IMG/VR virus record: IMGVR_UViG_3300018471_000108
Origin: a virus
Taxonomy: Duplodnaviria; Heunggongvirae; Uroviricota; Caudoviricetes
Length of the DNA stretch: 6,554 nt
Direction: 5' to 3' (one strand)
This document shows positions 1 through 6,554 of this stretch, piece after piece. Every line of letters starts with the position of its first letter. The stretch's first letter is position 1. The translations under genes were made by a program, and so were the position numbers. The notes under the pieces were generated by a model, which worked only from the letters and a program-made list of their open reading frames with translations, did not search any database and was not told the DNA's origin.

Positions 1-31
1 ACTGGAGTTCAGACGTGTGCTCTTCCGATCT
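1..31. other. Synthetic Illumina TruSeq-type adapter (read-2 side), not biological sequence
   Basis: 1..31 reads ACTGGAGTTCAGACGTGTGCTCTTCCGATCT, which matches the 3' part of the TruSeq indexed adapter as I recall it. The insert starts at 32. Confidence 0.9.
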
Positions 32-503
32 CAAAGTGCTCAATAAACCAAGTTAAATCATTGATTGCCTTAGCTCCTGAGAATGAAACATCGTCAAGGT
101 AAATAAATTCACGGAATGAACTAACTCTTTGACGTTGTGACAGTCTGGTCACAACGTTGAATTCTTCTACACAATCTTCGCGAAGCAAATCCAAAAACTC
201 AGATTGACTGGTGCCTTGGTTCTGGATATCGAGAAACGCTGCGGTTTGAAAGAACCTTTCATTTTGCTCATCATTGGCGATACTACTAATAACTCTGCGA
301 TAGTCGCTCTCAGAGAAGTATCCAATCCCCATTAATCGGTCCGTTTCCTCTAAGACAAATCGCCTATCGGTTAACTCAAATTGATTAATCCATCGATTAA
401 CATGATCAATGCTCATGCCACCTTGAGGAGGGTTTCGATAGTCATTTAATTTAGTAGCAATTTGCCCCATAAGATCACGATCTGTAACATTGCTATAACA
501 CAT
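32..503 (-). CDS. Hypothetical protein, N-terminal ~157 aa only; C-terminus lies beyond the insert boundary. Accessory gene immediately downstream of P (ren/nin slot).
   Basis: ATG at 501..503 (minus) preceded by AGGA 7 nt upstream. The frame stays open until it runs into the adapter, so the stop at 9..11 and the last ~8 residues of the track ORF are adapter-derived. AT-rich (~38% GC on a sampled stretch) compared with the adjacent replication genes. No family recognised by eye. Confidence 0.6.
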
Positions 504-706
504 ATAGATTCCTGTTCATGCATTGATACGAAAGGGTCAGAATACTCTTAAAAAAATTTGGTGAAAGCCTGAAAAGTCATAATGTTAACATGTATCACAA
601 ATTGTTATTTTTCTCAGTATCTGAGACGTAAACTGAATCCAAGACCACTAATCTGGCTCAAAAAATTTAGAAAGTTTCTCATAATGAATACTTGCCTCTT
701 TGCCCG

Positions 707-1408
707 TCATACACTTGCTCCTTTCAGCCCAAACTTAGCTTTGATTTCTGCGATCTTCGCCAGAGCCTGTGCACGATTTAGAGGTCTACCGCCCATAACA
801 GGAAGTTGTTTTACTGGTTCAGGTATCGTCTCACCACGGTTAATTCGCGCTGTCATATAGGTCAGTTCATCGGCAGCCTTGCGCCGTAATTCCGCATCAG
901 TAAGCGCATTGGCCCGCATGTTCTGGTACAGGTTGGTAACCAGCCAGTAGTGCGCGTTTGATTTCCATGGATAAGACTCTGCGTCCGGATACAGGCCACG
1001 CTTCCGGCAATACTCGTAAACCATATCAACCAGCTCGCTGACGTTTGGCAGCCCGGCGTTAACAGATGCTTCTTCCCGGCACCAGGCGACAAACTGCCCG
1101 GGTGATGGCAGGAATGGTCGATTCTGCCGACGGGCTACGCGCATTCCTGCGTTAACCTGTTCCATTGTGGTGATCCCGTTTTCCCGGAAAGCCAGAACCC
1201 ACTGGCGGCGGATTTCGTTCAGTTCGTTCTGATCCCGGTTAGCCAGGCTCGCAGGGAAAGTTGCCAGTAACTGGCTGAACACACCGTTGATGATCTGCGC
1301 TACCTGCTGTACCTGCGGCTTTTCGTCGTACTGTTCCGGCATATTGTTGGCGATCCGGCGCATCTGCTCACGGTCAAAGTTAACCATCTGTGCGGCGATG
1401 TTTTTCAT
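707..1408 (-). CDS. P: Lambda-type replication protein P (DnaB helicase loader)
   Basis: 233 aa translation (MKNIAAQMVNFDREQMRRIANNMPEQYDEKPQ...AKIAEIKAKFGLKGASV) is near-identical over its full length to phage lambda P as I recall it. The start ATG overlaps the O stop (ATGA at 1405..1408), as in lambda. GGTGG Shine-Dalgarno 5 nt upstream. Confidence 0.93.
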   Translation of the reverse strand: MKNIAAQMVNFDREQMRRIANNMPEQYDEKPQVQQVAQIINGVFSQLLATFPASLANRDQNELNEIRRQWVLAFRENGITTMEQVNAGMRVARRQNRPFLPSPGQFVAWCREEASVNAGLPNVSELVDMVYEYCRKRGLYPDAESYPWKSNAHYWLVTNLYQNMRANALTDAELRRKAADELTYMTARINRGETIPEPVKQLPVMGGRPLNRAQALAKIAEIKAKFGLKGASV

Positions 1409-2334
1409 AAATCCACCCCGTAAATCCAGTCAGTGTTCGTCAGGTCGAGTTTTGGTTTGCCGGCTGTCACGCCAGCCTGTTGCTTGTTTCGGTTGATTTC
1501 GAGCTGGGTCCACTTGTCGCGGAGTTTGGCCGGACTCAGCACGTTACCGGACCAGAAGTTGTCCTGGCATGCCCAGCGGAACAGCACGCACATGTCGCGG
1601 TGGTTACGTCCGTCACGTTCACGCATCAGGCGGATATCGTTAGCCCACCCTGCAAAATTCGGTTTTCTGGCTGATGGCGCGATGGTCTTCACCATGTCAA
1701 ACATCCACTCTGCGGCGGTCAGGTCTTCTGCTGTCCCCCACTTGCTGCCGCTCTGAATTGCAGCATCTGGTTTCTCCACAGGAAGATCGTTTTCTGGTTG
1801 GTCAGAGGATTCGCCAGAATTCTCGGACGAAAAAGGTTTTATATTGTCTTTTGTTAGTTTGTCTTTTGTGTTTACCTGATTCGGGTAAGTGCCTTTACCT
1901 GATTTGGGTAAACTTTTCTTACCTGATTCAGGTAAATTTACCTCTTTCAGGTAAACTTTATTTTTCTTACCTGATTCGGGTAATGTTGACCATTCACTGA
2001 CCACATTATTAATGCCGATATTCCGCCCGCTCTGAATAAAAATCCCACGCTTTACCAGAACACTTTTTGCAGCAGAACACTTGTGCGGCAATATCCCGGT
2101 CAACTCGGAAAGTTGCTCGTTGCTCACCCAATCCAGTTTTTTATTAAAGCCATATGTTTTGCGCATGACAGCCAGGAAGACCAGAAGCTGGTGCTGTGTT
2201 AATCCGGCCAGCATCACAGCTTCCAGCAACTCATTTGCAATGCGCGTATAACCATCATCGAGATCTGCCACACGCGGCTCCTTTTGTGCCACATCCGGCA
2301 CTGGAAAATTGAATATCTCAGCAGTGTTTGCCAT
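1405..2334 (-). CDS. O: Lambda-type replication initiator O: divergent N-terminal iteron-binding domain, lambda-like C-terminal P-interaction domain
   Basis: C-terminal ~110 aa (...WGTAEDLTAAEWMFDMVKTIAPSARKPNFAGWANDIRLMRERDGRNHRDMCVLFRWACQDNFWSGNVLSPAKLRDKWTQLEINRNKQQAGVTAGKPKLDLTNTDWIYGVDL) matches lambda O as recalled. The N-terminal part contains the conserved VADLDDGY motif but is otherwise divergent. Start refined from the track ORF (2424) to ATG 2332..2334 (MANTAEIFNF...), which has a GGGAGG Shine-Dalgarno and matches the N-terminus pattern of lambda O. Ori iterons lie inside the gene. Confidence 0.9.
   Translation of the reverse strand: MANTAEIFNFPVPDVAQKEPRVADLDDGYTRIANELLEAVMLAGLTQHQLLVFLAVMRKTYGFNKKLDWVSNEQLSELTGILPHKCSAAKSVLVKRGIFIQSGRNIGINNVVSEWSTLPESGKKNKVYLKEVNLPESGKKSLPKSGKGTYPNQVNTKDKLTKDNIKPFSSENSGESSDQPENDLPVEKPDAAIQSGSKWGTAEDLTAAEWMFDMVKTIAPSARKPNFAGWANDIRLMRERDGRNHRDMCVLFRWACQDNFWSGNVLSPAKLRDKWTQLEINRNKQQAGVTAGKPKLDLTNTDWIYGVDL
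1828..1870. other. AT-rich segment flanking the iterons (putative DNA-unwinding element of ori)
   Basis: GAAAAAGGTTTTATATTGTCTTTTGTTAGTTTGTCTTTTGTG lies directly beside the iteron array on the side that is downstream in the O reading direction, the same relative position as the lambda ori AT-rich region. Confidence 0.55.
1872..1983. repeat. Replication origin iterons: five ~17-bp inverted-repeat units TTACC-N7-GGTAA inside the O gene
   Basis: Units at 1872..1888 (TTACCTGATTCGGGTAA), 1895..1911 (TTACCTGATTTGGGTAA), 1919..1935 (TTACCTGATTCAGGTAA), 1938..1954 (TTACCTCTTTCAGGTAA) and 1967..1983 (TTACCTGATTCGGGTAA). They fall in the O linker region, the same architecture as lambda ori. Their sequence differs from the lambda iterons. 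Confidence 0.8.
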
Positions 2335-2420
2335 AATTCCTCCCGCAATGAGTGTGTTACGATTTGCACCTGAAAGTCGGTTCTGTTCGCGCAGACCGGC
2401 TTTCGCCATTTCCGAACCTG

Positions 2421-2966
2421 TCATATTGCCCCCAGCATGGTGGTGACCATCGCCATCAGTGGACCAGCCAAATCCGGGTCCACACGAAACATCGACACAA
2501 TGCCTTCACTCATCTCCTTCAGTTTCTGGTGGCGTGGTGCGTTGAGAATGACAGCCTGTTTTGCCTCACTGAGTTCCTTTTCCATTTCAGCCAGCCGAGC
2601 CATGTAGCTATCCTGCTCAACCAGGTGGCCGCGATATTCCAGCGGTAGTACCGCCAGAATTGCCGGGGTCAGTTCACGCACGTTATTTCGGTATTTTTCA
2701 GAATCGAATTTGTTATCGAGGAAGCGGAACAGCTTCTGGCGTGCACGGCTGACATCATCAGGGAAATCGATGGTGCCGCCGCCCTGCTCCCGATACTCAT
2801 TCACAATGAGTGCGGCAACAACATCCTGATTATCTGCAGCCGACCAGGCGCGAACGGCATCACGGATTTTTTCGTGGCCTGGCGCCTGTTTTGTTTGAGA
2901 ACGATTTATCACCGCAGTCGGGCTAAATCCGCTAGTCTGTTGGTATGTAAGTGGTTGCATAGTCAT
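2421..2966 (-). CDS. CII-like regulator of the YdaT family (functional position of lambda cII)
   Basis: 181 aa ORF with ATG at 2964..2966 (AAGG upstream), lying between the cro-like gene and O. It contains segments (..EYREQGGG.., ..LTPAILAVLPLEYR..) resembling what I recall of E. coli Rac YdaT. The family assignment is from memory, not from a search. Confidence 0.55.
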   Translation of the reverse strand: MTMQPLTYQQTSGFSPTAVINRSQTKQAPGHEKIRDAVRAWSAADNQDVVAALIVNEYREQGGGTIDFPDDVSRARQKLFRFLDNKFDSEKYRNNVRELTPAILAVLPLEYRGHLVEQDSYMARLAEMEKELSEAKQAVILNAPRHQKLKEMSEGIVSMFRVDPDLAGPLMAMVTTMLGAI

Positions 2967-2990
2967 TGCCTTATCAGTTAACGCCGCAGT

Positions 2991-3218
2991 TTAGGCGGCA
3001 GAATTACTCGCGTTAAACAATGGTGCGAGGTCGGGACGAATATCTGCTGGTTTAATCTTTCCACCAGTGGCTGAGACAATTTTCATTACATAGCGGGCAT
3101 CAATTCCGCCACCGTGTAGCCAACGCCAAACTGTGGGTTGGGCTACACCGCATAGATCTGCCAGTCGTTTTTGACTACCTGTAATACTGATTGCGAGTTG
3201 AATGGTTTGATTTGTCAT
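2991..3218 (-). CDS. cro: Cro-like HTH regulator (YdaS family)
   Basis: 75 aa from ATG 3216..3218 (the track ORF begins at a TTG two codons upstream). AGGA Shine-Dalgarno 9 nt upstream. HTH-like segment GSQKRLADLCGVAQPTVWRW and a YdaS-like ...ATGGKIKPADIRPD tail. Divergent from the CI-like gene. Confidence 0.75.
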   Translation of the reverse strand: MTNQTIQLAISITGSQKRLADLCGVAQPTVWRWLHGGGIDARYVMKIVSATGGKIKPADIRPDLAPLFNASNSAA

Positions 3219-3328
3219 TATCAATTCCTATTGGTATTGCAATGAATGAATAATAGCAATGCGTATTAATCCAAGCAATAGCAAAACGTGTTTTGACCAT
3301 CAATACGCAAGCGTATAAATTAAAACTT
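3219..3328. promoter_or_regulatory. OR-like divergent promoter/operator region between cro and cI
   Basis: Minus-strand PR-like promoter: -35 TTGCTT (plus 3273..3278), 17-nt spacer, -10 TATTAT (plus 3250..3255). Plus-strand PRM-like promoter: -35 TTGACC 3293..3298, 16-nt spacer, -10 ATAAAT 3315..3320, placing the transcription start at or near the cI ATG (3329). Repeated AATAGCAA(T) motifs at 3252..3260 and 3277..3284 overlap the PR elements. Inverted repeat ATACGC-AA-GCGTAT at 3303..3316 sits in the PRM spacer. Confidence 0.6.
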
Positions 3329-4021
3329 ATGAAAAAAGAAACTCTTGCTGATCGCTTAAACCTAGCGATGGAACAATCTGGAATGTCTCAAGGCGCTCTT
3401 GCAAAGGCGTCTGGCGTAGCTCAACCCACAATCTGGAGACTGACAAGCGGCAACGCGCGCGGCTCAACAAAAATTGTTGAAATAGCTAATGCATTGGGTG
3501 TTCGAACAGAATGGCTCTCATCAGGCATAGGCCCGATGAGAAATGACGGTCAACAATCAGGGAAGCCTGCTGTCAGCCATTCAAAATACTTCAAGATTGA
3601 CGTTCTTGATATAGAAGTCAGTGCCGGGCCGGGTGTAATCAACCGTGAGTTTGTAGAAGTTCTACGCTCGGTTGAGTACTCGTTTGACGATGCTCGTCAC
3701 ATGTTCGATGGCAGGAAGGCGGAAAATATCCGCATCATTAACGTGCGTGGTGACAGCATGTCAGGAACGATCGAACCAGGTGATCTGCTGTTCGTTGATA
3801 TCACAGTTAAATCTTTCGACGGTGATGGTATCTATGCGTTTCTGTACGACGACACAGCCCATGTAAAGCGCCTGCAAATGATGAAGGATAAGCTGCTGGT
3901 CATCTCTGATAACAAAAGCTACTCACCGTGGGACCCGATCGAGAAAGACGAGATGAACCGGGTGTTCATCTTCGGTAAGGTTATTGGGAGCATGCCGCAG
4001 ACATATAGGAAGCATGGTTAA
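3329..4021 (+). CDS. cI: CI-like prophage repressor (N-terminal HTH, C-terminal S24 LexA-like autopeptidase)
   Basis: HTH segment MSQGALAKASGVAQPTIWRL. C-terminal VRGDSMSGTIEPGDLLFVD (Ser nucleophile in the GDSM motif) and HVKRLQ (Lys) form the S24 Ser-Lys dyad. Start placed at ATG 3329 rather than the track TTG at 3293, because that TTG is the -35 of the predicted PRM-like promoter and the ATG has no Shine-Dalgarno, consistent with a leaderless transcript as in lambda cI. Confidence 0.88.
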   Translation: MKKETLADRLNLAMEQSGMSQGALAKASGVAQPTIWRLTSGNARGSTKIVEIANALGVRTEWLSSGIGPMRNDGQQSGKPAVSHSKYFKIDVLDIEVSAGPGVINREFVEVLRSVEYSFDDARHMFDGRKAENIRIINVRGDSMSGTIEPGDLLFVDITVKSFDGDGIYAFLYDDTAHVKRLQMMKDKLLVISDNKSYSPWDPIEKDEMNRVFIFGKVIGSMPQTYRKHG

Positions 4022-4032
4022 AGTGAGGCTAA

Positions 4033-4069
4033 AAAACAGTTACAGCAATAGGCCTGTTGTTTTTCTTTA
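4033..4069 (+). terminator. Weak hairpin plus T-run after cI (possible leaky attenuator)
   Basis: AAAACAG (4033..4039) can pair imperfectly with CTGTT(G)TTT (4054..4062), followed by TTTTCTTT. The stem is AT-rich and imperfect, so read-through into the downstream cassette is plausible. Confidence 0.25.
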
Positions 4070-4143
4070 AACACGCAGTGTTAAACCGCTCTTTGAGATG
4101 CGGAGTAATGAGATGGAAGACTTGAATCACATAAGGGTTAGTG

Positions 4144-4893
4144 ATGGAGTGCGTAGCGAGCAGCAATAGTGCAATACCTAATGTCGTTGAAGTAATACGT
4201 CGCATCAATGAAGGTTCCACTCAGCCATTTCTTTGCAAATGTGATGATGGGCAGTTGTATGTTTTGAAGTCAAAACCATCAATGCCCCCGAAAAATCTCT
4301 TAGCTGAGTTCATTTCGGCGTGTTTGGCTAATGATATCGGCCTTCCTTTACCTGACTTTAAAATCGTATTTGTGCCAGAGGAACTTATAGAGTACTCACC
4401 TGATCTGCAGCAACAAATTTGTACAGGATATGCCTTTGCTTCATTGTTCATTGACGGTGCAATAGCGTTAACGTTTACGCAGTCAAGAAACGAAACGATC
4501 ATCCCAGTCGAACAGCAAAAATTAATCTATGTTTTTGATAAATGGATATTAAATGCAGACAGAACGCTTACTGACAAAGGTGGAAACGTTAACATCCTTT
4601 ATGACATCAGTAACGATAAGTATTATCTGATTGACCATAATCTCTCATTTGATCAGAATGCTGGACCTGAAGATTTTTCTGTGCACGTGTACGGCCCTGG
4701 TAACCGCAAATGGCAATATGATTTAGTGGATCGCGTAGAGTACCGCCAGAGGGTCGTTAACAGTTTACACAAGCTTCCTGCTATCCTTGACGAAATTCCA
4801 GAAGAGTGGATAGTAGATGAGGAGTTTTTACCTTTTGTCTGCACTACGCTAGACAAAGGTGATTGTGATGAATTTTGGAGCGCAATAGAATGA
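4144..4893 (+). CDS. Short HipA-like kinase-fold protein (accessory, rexA-equivalent position)
   Basis: 249 aa from ATG 4144 (AAGGG Shine-Dalgarno 4133..4137, 6-nt spacer; the track ORF begins at a GTG one codon upstream). The segment VFDKWILNADRTLTDKGGNVNIL...YYLIDHNLSFD resembles the HipA/PI3-4 kinase-type catalytic loop (HipA ...LIGNTDxHxKN...) followed by a D-x-N metal-binding element. YVLKSKP is a candidate ATP-binding lysine. Only ~250 aa, so it lacks the HipA N-terminal domains. AT-rich codon usage. Confidence 0.6.
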   Translation: MECVASSNSAIPNVVEVIRRINEGSTQPFLCKCDDGQLYVLKSKPSMPPKNLLAEFISACLANDIGLPLPDFKIVFVPEELIEYSPDLQQQICTGYAFASLFIDGAIALTFTQSRNETIIPVEQQKLIYVFDKWILNADRTLTDKGGNVNILYDISNDKYYLIDHNLSFDQNAGPEDFSVHVYGPGNRKWQYDLVDRVEYRQRVVNSLHKLPAILDEIPEEWIVDEEFLPFVCTTLDKGDCDEFWSAIE

Positions 4894-5717
4894 CAACTCC
4901 ATGCCTATATAGCATCGTTCGCTATGCGCCTTATGCGGAGACTGAAGAGTTCGCAAACATAGGCGTACTTCTGTGCGCGCCAAAAGAAAATTACTTTGAT
5001 TTCCAGCTCACAAAGCGAAATGACTCTCGTGTAAAGAATTTTTTCCATGATGATTGTATTTTCCCTGTAGCAAAAGACTCAATACAAAGAGAACTACAGT
5101 TCGCAAAAATGCATGCGACCCAGATTGTTGGACATCAACAACTTGCACAATTCTTCAGATATTTTACAAACAAAAAAGAATCAATTTTTCAGTTCAGTTC
5201 TACGAGAGTGATTCTCAGCGAAAACCCAAAAGAAGAGCTGGCCCGCATTTACAATAAATATGTAAACCACTCTGACTACACAAAAGAGCGCCGTGAAGAT
5301 GTTCTAGCCAGAGAGCTAAAACGAAGTATCGATAGAATAGATGGATTGAAGAACGTCTTCAAACAAGCAACCATTGATGGGTATTTCGCAAAGTTCTCAA
5401 TGCCATTGGTCGCCAAGAAGCATGACAGGATCCAATGTGCCATCAAACCTCTGGCATTCACTCAAGCTGAACCAGGAAAAATGATGGAGCATAGTGATAC
5501 TTGGGTGATGAGAATAACTCGAGCAGCAGAAGAAAACCTGCTTTCACTTGATGACATTTTATTCACAATTGAAACTCCTGAATCACCAAACTCAGGCCAA
5601 AGCAAAGTTATTGACATCATAAAGAGAACTATGGATGCTAAGAAAATAAATCATATACCTGCATCCAACCACAAAGAAACTATTGATTTTGCAAAAAAAA
5701 TACTTCCCCAAGTTTAA
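4890..5717 (+). CDS. DUF3037-like protein with C-terminal extension (accessory, rexB-equivalent position)
   Basis: 275 aa from ATG 4890, which overlaps the upstream stop as ATGA (4890..4893). GGAG 9 nt upstream. The N-terminus TPCLYSIVRYAPYAETEEFANIGVLL matches the DUF3037 signature as I recall it (YS..RY.P....EF.N.GV.L). About 140 extra C-terminal residues have no recognised domain. The track ORF start at 4875 is a TTG. Confidence 0.55.
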   Translation: MTTPCLYSIVRYAPYAETEEFANIGVLLCAPKENYFDFQLTKRNDSRVKNFFHDDCIFPVAKDSIQRELQFAKMHATQIVGHQQLAQFFRYFTNKKESIFQFSSTRVILSENPKEELARIYNKYVNHSDYTKERREDVLARELKRSIDRIDGLKNVFKQATIDGYFAKFSMPLVAKKHDRIQCAIKPLAFTQAEPGKMMEHSDTWVMRITRAAEENLLSLDDILFTIETPESPNSGQSKVIDIIKRTMDAKKINHIPASNHKETIDFAKKILPQV

Positions 5718-5751
5718 AATTTATTTTTGTATGTGATATTCCTTATTAATA

Positions 5752-5779
5752 ACCCGGCCACCGTGCCGGGTTTTCTTTT
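5752..5779 (+). terminator. Rho-independent terminator closing the cI-cassette operon
   Basis: ACCCGGC (5752..5758), loop CACCGT, GCCGGGT (5765..5771): a perfect 7-bp GC-rich stem followed by TTTTCTTTT. Confidence 0.8.
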
Positions 5780-5919
5780 GCCTCCCCTCATCACACAAAC
5801 CGCTCAAAAAATCACCATAACCTCGCTTCAGTTATCGCTATGCGATGCAAGTCACAAAATTAATTCTTTTTGCTATCAAACATTTAATATCAAAACACAT
5901 CAACTAATAGCAATAAGTA

Positions 5920-5948
5920 TTGATATCACCAATAGCAATAGCTATTAT
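5920..5948 (+). promoter_or_regulatory. PL-like early-left promoter with overlapping operator motifs (OL-like)
   Basis: -35 TTGATA 5920..5925, 17-nt spacer, -10 TATTAT 5943..5948. AATAGCAAT motifs at 5906..5914 and 5931..5939 (the same 9-mer as in the OR region) and the 10-bp palindrome AATAGCTATT at 5937..5946 overlap the promoter. Confidence 0.55.
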
Positions 5949-6225
5949 CACCATATCGCAACAACACAACGATACGGCAACCACCTGATTCACCGTTGCG
6001 ATGACCGCTTAGATCCGCAGCTTGAATTTCAGCAGGCTTCGGGGAGTGCGAGGGATGAAACGGACGCGTGAACGTCGGTGTGACCAGCTGAAATCAACTC
6101 AACATTTCATACCTTAGTCGCTTCAACGAGGCGGCTTAGTTATGGCAACCGGCGGCCATCCACCGCCTGAATACGCGCAGAAGTCTCTATATGTTCAGCA
6201 GCCCAGCTTACGGGCAGGAGTTTTT

Positions 6226-6432
6226 ATGGTTCATCAACATTACGGAACGCAGACCGTTAATCGCGGCGCGGTCATGCCAGGAATGCTGGTCAAACACAAA
6301 GATGGTACCTGGACTGCATCAGCTAATTTACGCGGACGGCTATATCTGCATCGCGGCATCGAGCGCACTTATACCCGTGATTTGCTCGTGGAAGTTTTTC
6401 TCGACGGACGCGGTAACGGCCTGAATCACTAA
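6226..6432 (+). CDS. Hypothetical small protein (first gene of the early-left transcript); alternative start at 6142
   Basis: ATG 6226 is preceded by AGGAG with a 5-nt spacer. The in-frame ATG at 6142 (GAGG 10 nt upstream) would give 96 aa. No arginine-rich N-terminus, so it does not look like a lambda N-type antiterminator. Confidence 0.4.
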   Translation: MVHQHYGTQTVNRGAVMPGMLVKHKDGTWTASANLRGRLYLHRGIERTYTRDLLVEVFLDGRGNGLNH

Positions 6433-6507
6433 TCCCCTTTTCTGTTTTCCTAATCAGCCTGGCATTTCGCTGGCGATATTTTCACAGCCATTTTCAGGAG
6501 TTCAGCC

Positions 6508-6533
6508 ATGAACGCTTATTACATTCAGGATCG
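6508..6533 (+). CDS. 5' end of a gene cut by the insert boundary (MNAYYIQDR...)
   Basis: ATG 6508 with AGGAG 7 nt upstream. Only 8-9 codons fall before the adapter begins. Confidence 0.35.
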
Positions 6534-6554
6534 AGATCGGAAGAGCGTCGTGTA
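6534..6554. other. Synthetic Illumina TruSeq-type adapter (read-through AGATCGGAAGAGCGTCGTGTA), not biological sequence
   Basis: 6534..6554 reads AGATCGGAAGAGCGTCGTGTA, the canonical start of the TruSeq universal adapter read-through as I recall it. Confidence 0.9.

Follow-up and report, generated by a model that had tools for sequence, protein, structure and literature searches.

The closest described relative of the locus analyzed here is DS-32, a two-gene system that was validated as clone NADR in the DefensePredictor study (bioRxiv 10.1101/2025.01.08.631726; Science, PMC13092281). According to the primary-screen table of that study (Table S7; PMC13092281), DS-32 gave -log EOP values of 3.7 for Bas26, 1.6 for RB69, 0.9 for SECphi18, and 0.6 for T5, with small plaques on all four of these phages, and Bas67 is entered there as unaffected. 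Its authors likened DS-32B to the NADAR antitoxin of DarTG, found DS-32A unlike DarT, and left the mechanism open (PMC13092281). In ADP-ribosylated DNA, the N-glycosidic bond between guanine and ribose is hydrolyzed by NADARs of all subfamilies, and NADARs can serve as antitoxins to DarT1 and YarT, with YarT-YbiA as the example of the YbiA type (PMC11125620).

PRTases are also found as effectors in two other defense systems. In Retron-Eco11, mutation of the PRPP motif abolishes defense, and activation is accompanied by an ~50% fall in PRPP; a PNNxP motif has been described as specific to retron-associated PRTase effectors (PMC12746101). The ShosT toxin was crystallized with bound PRPP, its D331A/D332A loop mutant is nontoxic, and no acceptor was found (PMC11961720).

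Here, we analyze a stretch of 6,554 nucleotides of viral DNA (the window) in which positions 32-503 (minus strand), as judged from profile matches, almost certainly belong to a DS-32-type anti-phage cassette of two genes (PRTase-CE plus NADAR), of whose A subunit they encode the N-terminal 46%. This identification is in itself already known, in that the system has been published and a RefSeq label for it exists. The sections below deal with the position of the cassette in the prophage, its variation in Escherichia coli, its relatives in other phyla, and the mechanism that these suggest.

The insert and the truncated gene

The window is an adapter-flanked library insert rather than a natural contig end, because adapter sequences are present on both sides: an Illumina adapter, a library artifact, occupies bases 1-31 (its reverse complement is AGATCGGAAGAGCACACGTCTGAACTCCAGT, and genome matches begin at base 32), and the far end, 6534-6554, is Illumina adapter sequence as well. 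The insert proper, 32-6533, shows 99.9% identity to a lambdoid DLP12-like prophage that is found in many E. coli chromosomes. Since bases 1-31 are adapter, the genomic sequence starts at 32, and 157 complete codons plus 1 base of the gene remain. The listed ORF (9-503, minus strand; 164 aa) therefore takes its last six residues, IGRAHV, and its stop codon from the adapter, and the initial annotation had already called its last residues adapter-encoded; in the true DS-32A protein, codon 157 is followed by LQNITILV... instead. The proposal that the ORF is real, with only its N-terminal ~157 residues present, is borne out as well. The 157-aa fragment matches the Pfam domain PRTase-CE (PF24390; E = 4.7e-17), and the segment 32-720 is 100% identical to annotated coding sequences in complete E. 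coli genomes, both of which mark 32-503 as a true gene rather than a fortuitous ORF. This 5' piece of 472 nt (codons 1-157 of 339) is identical to WP_021548563.1 over its whole stretch.

As read from the sequence, the Shine-Dalgarno motif AGGA (510-513, minus strand) lies 6 nt before the ATG at 501-503, a start that agrees with the RefSeq annotation. The gene thus has its own ribosome-binding motif, as annotated initially, and it is AT-rich, with a GC content of 39.6% and a GC3 of 31.8%, versus 53.4% and 58.1%, respectively, for the replication gene P. The latter (707-1408, minus strand, according to the annotation in the matching genomes) is the upstream neighbor that defines the slot. The spacer between the P stop codon and the ATG is 203 bp long (504-706), with a GC fraction of 0.32 across bases 501-700. 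The AT-rich spacer of ~200 bp in the initial annotation is therefore real but not uniform, since it begins with 28 nt from the 5' end of lambda ren. These nucleotides open a ren stub, a 20-codon ORF (648-710, minus strand; MTGKEASIHYEKLSKFFEPD, followed by a stop) whose ATG overlaps the stop codon of P and whose first 28 nt match ren of lambda and 933W (Ren: MTGKEAIIHY...).

Homology to 933W ends at approximately position 681, and the remainder of the spacer is a cassette-specific AT-rich leader of ~175 nt (504-681, minus strand; 32% GC), within which TCTCAG-ATA-CTGAGA (612-626) forms a short inverted repeat. A sigma-70 and terminator scan of bases 1-1000 revealed no promoter on the coding strand, and inspection of the leader by eye gave, at best, 7 to 8 of 12 promoter matches with poor spacing. 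Conservation of the leader upstream of the Citrobacter or Enterobacter homologs was not found, so that no shared regulatory element can be defined.

The copy of DS-32A in the insert cannot be functional, because the PNNxP subdomain at the C terminus and the NADAR gene are both missing. It therefore cannot account for any phenotype of the insert, whereas a second, complete gene pair could. This pair, encoding a HipA-family kinase and a DUF3037 protein, occupies the cI-adjacent (rex) slot (4141-5717, plus strand). In the matching genome of E. coli strain STN0717-20 (L001), its products are annotated as WP_000389051.1 and WP_000210934.1, which are also the accessions given for DS-6 (clone HIPA), a validated DefensePredictor system; the window translations match the printed DS-6 sequences, and PADLOC assigns them to PDC-M66A/B. 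The prophage, then, carries two DefensePredictor systems, DS-6 and DS-32, of which DS-6 alone is intact in the insert. Downstream of DS-6, the region 5700-6000 is AT-rich (~36% GC), has a GC skew of -0.40 to -0.43, and is overlapped only by a doubtful ORF of 114 aa. The O gene (1405-2424, minus strand) encodes 339 aa and includes an AT-rich dip at 1801-2000 (36.5% GC), where lambda-type origins lie. The L001 allele of O (10374-11303) encodes 309 aa, despite the identity of L001 to the window over 32-720; genomes with this same DS-32 allele have mosaic replication modules.

The complete gene and its partner

Identical genomic copies in E. coli provide the full gene, which is 1,020 nt long and encodes 339 aa (WP_021548563.1). 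RefSeq names this product “phosphoribosyltransferase-like protein” and, in the newest annotations, “phosphoribosyltransferase-like anti-phage protein.” Two nucleotides past its stop codon (L001 and L002), outside the window, begins the gene for a NADAR family (anti-phage) protein of 203 aa (WP_000122138.1). In NCBIfam searches, the full-length A protein scored 310.9 bits on NF053875 (DS32_1_antiphage), versus a cut-off of 250, and the B protein scored 259.8 bits on NF053876 (DS32_2_antiphage), versus a cut-off of 240; both are equivalog models. The 157-aa window fragment by itself scored 130.2 bits on NF053875, and truncation is the sole cause of its staying under the cut-off of 250. PADLOC-DB 2023 has no dedicated model for DS-32 and yields only weak matches of DS-32A, to retron PRTase_III-A (a modest E = 5e-10) and to PDC-M42C. 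Recovery of the full gene, profile searches with the complete protein, and a look for a partner gene had all been suggested in the initial annotation; its description of the gene as one of “unknown function” no longer applies, as the family has a name and a homolog has been tested experimentally.

PRTase-CE is the sole Pfam domain of DS-32A, which ends at residue 339. The protein has the five-stranded parallel β core of a type I PRTase, together with a PRPP loop in which an acidic pair precedes a small-residue/Gly turn. The PRPP-loop-like motif, Y135-L-D137-D138-V-S-F141-S-G143 in translation (75-101, minus strand), departs from what we take to be the canonical PROSITE pattern. Conservation was assessed in 81 family members from across phyla at a threshold of at least 95%. 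Residues that pass this threshold include Y135, D137, D138, F141, and G143 of the loop; a cluster in the N-terminal helices (Y22, R23, H34, V35, W38, Q41, and F42); L91, Q94, G97, S99, and Q100, as well as E205 and N206; and a C-terminal block, P283-L-G...G293-F-G...R302-N-C-P-N-N-x-P-L...W328-Y-P-L, within which the PNNxP motif (P305-N306-N307-x-P309) is invariant. In one metagenomic PRTase-CE homolog of 440 aa (P0055), a BRCT domain is present at the N terminus (Pfam E = 3.8e-10).

DS-32B consists of a plain NADAR domain (Pfam E = 5.6e-23). Of the solved structures, E. coli YbiA resembles it most (3e-12), far ahead of the NADAR entry 8bau (0.009), and DS-32B also matches TIGR02464, the model for the riboflavin-intermediate N-glycosidase. 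The metabolic substrates of YbiA are 5-phosphoribosylamino-pyrimidines, that is, N-glycosides of ribose-5-phosphate, which contain the type of bond that a PRTase makes. Two motifs of DS-32B, E44/Y47/Q48 and V122-E123-x-S-x-x-D128-x-x-W-G, are at least 95% conserved, and the invariant Glu residue E123 (in IVEHS) aligns with VEHT of YbiA. From the subfamily descriptions in PMC11125620, we infer that E123 is the subfamily-defining residue, which would make DS-32B a NADAR of the YbiA (Glu) type.

Replacement of ren by the cassette

Colinearity of the window with phage 933W extends to the end of P and 28 nt into ren, and homology to the backbone returns just upstream of ninB/ybcN. In lambda, 933W, H-19B, phage 21, HK140, and SfI, the position after P is occupied by ren. 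Judging from these alignments, ren of a DLP12-like lambdoid prophage has been replaced, between P and ninB/ybcN, by a ~2.3-kb AT-rich and horizontally acquired cassette; the persistence of a ren remnant in the spacer indicates that ren was replaced and not merely adjoined. The cassette includes, just outside the window and 275 nt downstream of the NADAR gene, an ORF for a hypothetical protein of 67 aa (L001 7361-7564, minus strand). It has no Pfam or NCBIfam match and is absent beside the pair in other genera, and for these reasons it is not counted as a part of the DS-32 system.

Of 2,227 E. coli genomes with a match to the P end, only 44 (2%) have the DS-32A gene, and tblastn searches of 50,697 phage genome records found no encoded homolog. 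In Enterobacter, Citrobacter, and distant phyla, the PRTase-NADAR pair sits in unrelated contexts. The P, O, cII-like, cro, and cI products of the window showed no tblastn match in the loci from other genera, and neither did the nin-region and small cassette ORFs of L001. Because the backbone proteins remain unmatched in those loci, the cassette must move independently of the lambdoid backbone. The assignment of the gene in the initial annotation to accessory or defense cargo of the ren/nin slot is upheld both by its passing the DS-32 cut-offs and by its low frequency among the P-end genomes. The lambdoid P-ninB (ren) interval is thus a confirmed cargo slot, which is known to hold ren, two highly divergent DS-32 alleles, and, once, an extra methyltransferase.

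Allele divergence in E. coli

The A protein encoded by the window allele is 51 to 53% identical to the validated DS-32A, and its B protein is 85% identical to DS-32B. The identity of A is distributed unevenly, amounting to 42 to 48% for residues 1-255 and 71% for residues 256-339. In nucleotide sequence, the match of the second E. coli allele class is limited to the NADAR gene and the last ~84 codons of A; therefore, the window contains that piece of the system which evolves fast. The allele for which phage resistance has been demonstrated has ~52% (A) and 85% (B) identity to that of the window.

DS-32-like cassettes are encoded in 63 of the 5,426 complete E. coli genomes. Of these, 41 are at least 99% identical to the window allele, 3 show 90 to 95% identity, and 19 belong to the distant class; at least 41 genomes share identical A and B ORFs, both of them intact. 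The distant class includes strain L73, whose pair is 99.7% and 99.5% identical to the validated DS-32 pair and whose cassette occupies the same interval from P to ninB/ybcN. In this prophage, an MT-A70 family methyltransferase pseudogene with an internal stop codon (L088 6278-6862) lies between P and the validated-type DS-32A gene, as further variable cargo of the slot. In E. coli ETEC1732 (L089 2115-4334), DS-32A carries an IS5-family element (ISKpn26) after approximately codon 126, near window base 125, and the NADAR gene is intact; in ETEC1734, the match to the window is split into two pieces in the same way. These insertions, which spare NADAR, may represent inactivation of a costly or toxic A gene, although two ETEC strains make for an anecdotal case.

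PRTase-NADAR pairs in other phyla

Relatives of DS-32A were collected with the full-length protein as the query, as the 157-aa query gave fragments only. A pattern search in which each GTDB species was represented by one genome identified 277 loci with full-length relatives, of which 80 were fetched. In 79 of these 80 loci, the PRTase gene is immediately followed by a NADAR gene, and the remaining locus lies on a contig that terminates directly behind the PRTase gene. Between the two genes there is either a gap of 2 nt or an overlap. NADAR is consistently the better conserved partner, both across phyla (median identity of 45%, versus 31% for A) and within E. coli (85% versus ~52%). In Enterobacter, tandem A paralogs of 343 and 339 aa, which are 44% identical to each other, share a single NADAR. 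This two-A/one-NADAR locus (L083-L086; in L084, 5001-6032, 6526-7545, and 7548-8159) lies in a degraded prophage region and not in the P-ninB slot.

In distant phyla, the PRTase-NADAR pair is embedded in restriction-modification (R-M) operons. NADAR is fused to DNA-recognition or DNA modification modules in 35 of 77 loci: the module is a type I R-M specificity (HsdS) domain in 25 loci, HhH in 5, and DUF1156, alone or together with a DNA methyltransferase, in another 5. Such fusions are found, for example, in L009 (6016-8109), L031 (6029-8191), L020 (3964-6141), L029 (5875-10071), and L045 (5980-6936), as well as in L034, L038, L079, and L081. The gene directly upstream of A encodes HsdM in 18 loci and GmrSD in 7; an SNF2-family helicase and a radical-SAM/HhH protein account for 5 loci each. 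The last group, L045 (3488-4942) and four other loci, mostly from Dehalococcoidia/Chloroflexota, combines the radical-SAM HhH protein with PRTase-CE and a NADAR::HhH fusion, and in this clade the radical-SAM HhH protein may be a third, DNA-linked component. In the literature searched, we found no description of NADAR-HsdS, NADAR-MTase, or NADAR-HhH fusions or of a mechanism for the PRTase-NADAR pair.

Proposed mechanism

We know of no defense PRTase, be it from type III retrons, Shos, or DS-32, with a known phosphoribosyl acceptor. DS-32 is the one case among them in which a specific hypothesis is suggested by the partner enzyme, an N-glycosidase for which fusions to DNA-recognition modules recur. 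We tentatively read DS-32 as a DarTG-like pair of a toxin and an antidote enzyme, a reading that in our estimate falls slightly short of probable and that is favored by the conservation of both catalytic sites and by the obligate coupling and cotranslation of the two genes. Its chemistry, acceptor, toxin assignment, and trigger we infer as follows. DS-32A would bind PRPP via its conserved D137-D138...S-G loop and transfer 5-phosphoribose to a nucleophilic nitrogen, most likely of a nucleobase in DNA, where the phosphoribosyl adduct would constitute a replication-blocking lesion. DS-32B, as a YbiA-type NADAR N-glycosidase cotranslated with A, would continuously strip the adduct, leaving uninfected cells unharmed. 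Infection would shift this balance, with A being activated or B being outrun or inactivated, so that replication of phage and/or host DNA would halt.

DNA is the suggested target because NADAR is fused to HsdS, MTase, and HhH modules, HsdM is encoded upstream in 18 loci, and one A homolog bears a BRCT domain. The better conservation of B than of A and the service of a single B to two A paralogs suggest that the antidote acts on the product rather than on the partner protein. There is a parallel in ShosT, whose antidote works through single-stranded DNA and RecA (PMC12961424). The insertions that disrupt A and spare B in the two ETEC strains point the same way, if only anecdotally. Taken as a whole, with the DS-32A identity and the DarTG-like mechanism joined, this explanation appears to us evenly poised between right and wrong. 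A bolder version, in which DNA bases receive a phosphoribosyl adduct from PRPP and lose it again through the action of DS-32-type pairs, with NADAR::HsdS and NADAR::DNA-methyltransferase fusions wiring these pairs into R-M complexes in many phyla, is put forward with low confidence. If true, such an adduct would be a nucleic acid modification not yet described, the PRPP counterpart of DarT/NADAR ADP-ribosylation, and would name the long-missing acceptor for the type III retron and Shos defense PRTases.

The main rival to the toxin/antidote reading, which we judge to be rather unlikely, is a futile cycle of PRPP. In it, A would phosphoribosylate a small free acceptor and B would hydrolyze the product, returning the acceptor and ribose-5-phosphate, so that the two enzymes would be co-effectors and the net hydrolysis of PRPP would starve the phage of nucleotides. 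The obligate pairing fits such a cycle as well as it fits a toxin and its antidote. The metabolomics of Retron-Eco11 (PMC12746101) agree with it too, the ~50% drop in PRPP fitting depletion of a metabolite as well as modification of a macromolecule, and ShosT disturbs purine metabolism, with its pyrophosphatase pulling the PRTase reaction forward (PMC11961720). DS-32B is, moreover, closest to YbiA, which is annotated for small phosphoribosylamino-pyrimidines. However, the cycle leaves the fusions of NADAR with HsdS, MTase, or HhH (35 of 77 loci) and of BRCT with the PRTase unexplained, the retron and Shos PRTases function without any NADAR, and constitutive coexpression would be toxic unless gated, with no gate evident. 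The HsdS and MTase fusions could, by analogy with PrrC/EcoprrI, reflect a guard arrangement on the R-M complex and not a DNA substrate. The NADAR or the R-M fusion would then restrain the PRTase by binding or report on the integrity of the complex, a phage anti-restriction factor attacking this complex would release the PRTase, and NADAR catalysis would be secondary. The placement of the pair between hsdM and hsdS, with 25 NADAR::HsdS fusions in 77 loci and HsdM upstream in 18, speaks for this arrangement, such embedding being a known signature of defense genes (bioRxiv 10.1101/2024.01.29.577857), as does the ability of DarG to bind DarT directly as well (PMC11125620). Even so, we hold it to be improbable: the catalytic motifs of NADAR are at least 95% conserved across phyla, which places its catalysis under selection; B is conserved while A diverges, and one B accompanies two A proteins of 44% identity, which argues against a tight coevolving interface; and the E. 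coli version has no R-M partner.

It is also quite improbable that the cassette is not primarily a defense system in this prophage and instead either is a module for prophage benefit or counter-defense, with NADAR, for example, erasing the DNA ADP-ribosylation made by host DarT-type enzymes, or is a decaying remnant. Phage NADARs are reported to neutralize DarTG1 (PMC11825919), A is interrupted by an insertion sequence in two strains, and the scan of bases 1-1000 detected no promoter. On the other hand, a homologous pair under the control of its native promoter region confers defense in MG1655, at least 41 genomes share both ORFs in intact and identical form, A and B pass the equivalog cut-offs, and a counter-defense role would leave the PRTase without a function. 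As for the alternative named in the initial annotation, that the complete gene would prove to be a conserved core lambdoid gene of the nin region, its only support is the position between P and ninB, and its probability is negligible. The gene is present in 44 of 2,227 P-end genomes and in none of the 50,697 phage records, ren fills the slot in lambda and 933W, the composition of the gene is foreign to the backbone, and its relatives in Enterobacter, Citrobacter, and distant phyla have unrelated neighbors. The candidacy of a core nin gene was accordingly rejected.

Comparison with known systems

The toxin/antidote reading of DS-32 can be set against the systems that it most resembles. Lambda Ren shares with the cassette only the position immediately after P, where the first 28 nt of ren survive in the window. 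The homology is confined to a stub of 9 to 10 codons, whereas Ren is an exclusion protein of 96 aa, and a Ren homolog was rejected on this basis.

The type III-A retron effectors, exemplified by Retron-Eco11, have in common with DS-32A the type I PRTase core, the PRPP loop, and the clade-specific PNNxP motif. Unlike them, DS-32 has neither a reverse transcriptase (none is annotated within 9 kb on either side of DS-32A) nor a C-terminal winged-helix domain, and its partner is a NADAR enzyme. DS-32A is therefore related to the retron effectors but is not one of them, and that candidate was rejected as well. ShosTA resembles DS-32 in that it comprises a PRTase toxin that needs PRPP binding, an antidote that does not bind the toxin, and a link to DNA. 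However, ShosTA combines a PPase-PRTase fusion toxin with a DprA-like antitoxin, whereas DS-32A lacks the PPase domain and is partnered by NADAR; no Shos model in PADLOC matches DS-32A.

DarTG1 and YarT-YbiA are likewise two-gene operons with a defense role in which a putative toxin gene is followed by a gene for a NADAR N-glycosidase. They differ in the first component, as DS-32A has the fold of a PRPP-type PRTase and not that of an NAD+-using ADP-ribosyltransferase. In addition, DS-32B appears to belong to the YbiA (Glu) type, whereas the DarT1-linked NADAR is of the BC4488 type, with a catalytic Asp in the last strand. With a PRTase-fold partner and a Glu-type NADAR, the pair could not be assigned to DarTG1.

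This leaves DS-32 itself (clone NADR; WP_000097610.1 and WP_032260665.1). The window allele is divergent from it, with 51 to 53% identity in A and 85% in B, and the window holds codons 1-157 only. Nonetheless, the complete locus has the same translationally coupled order of PRTase-CE and NADAR, its products pass the same equivalog models, and the validated-type cassette occurs in the same P-ninB prophage slot.
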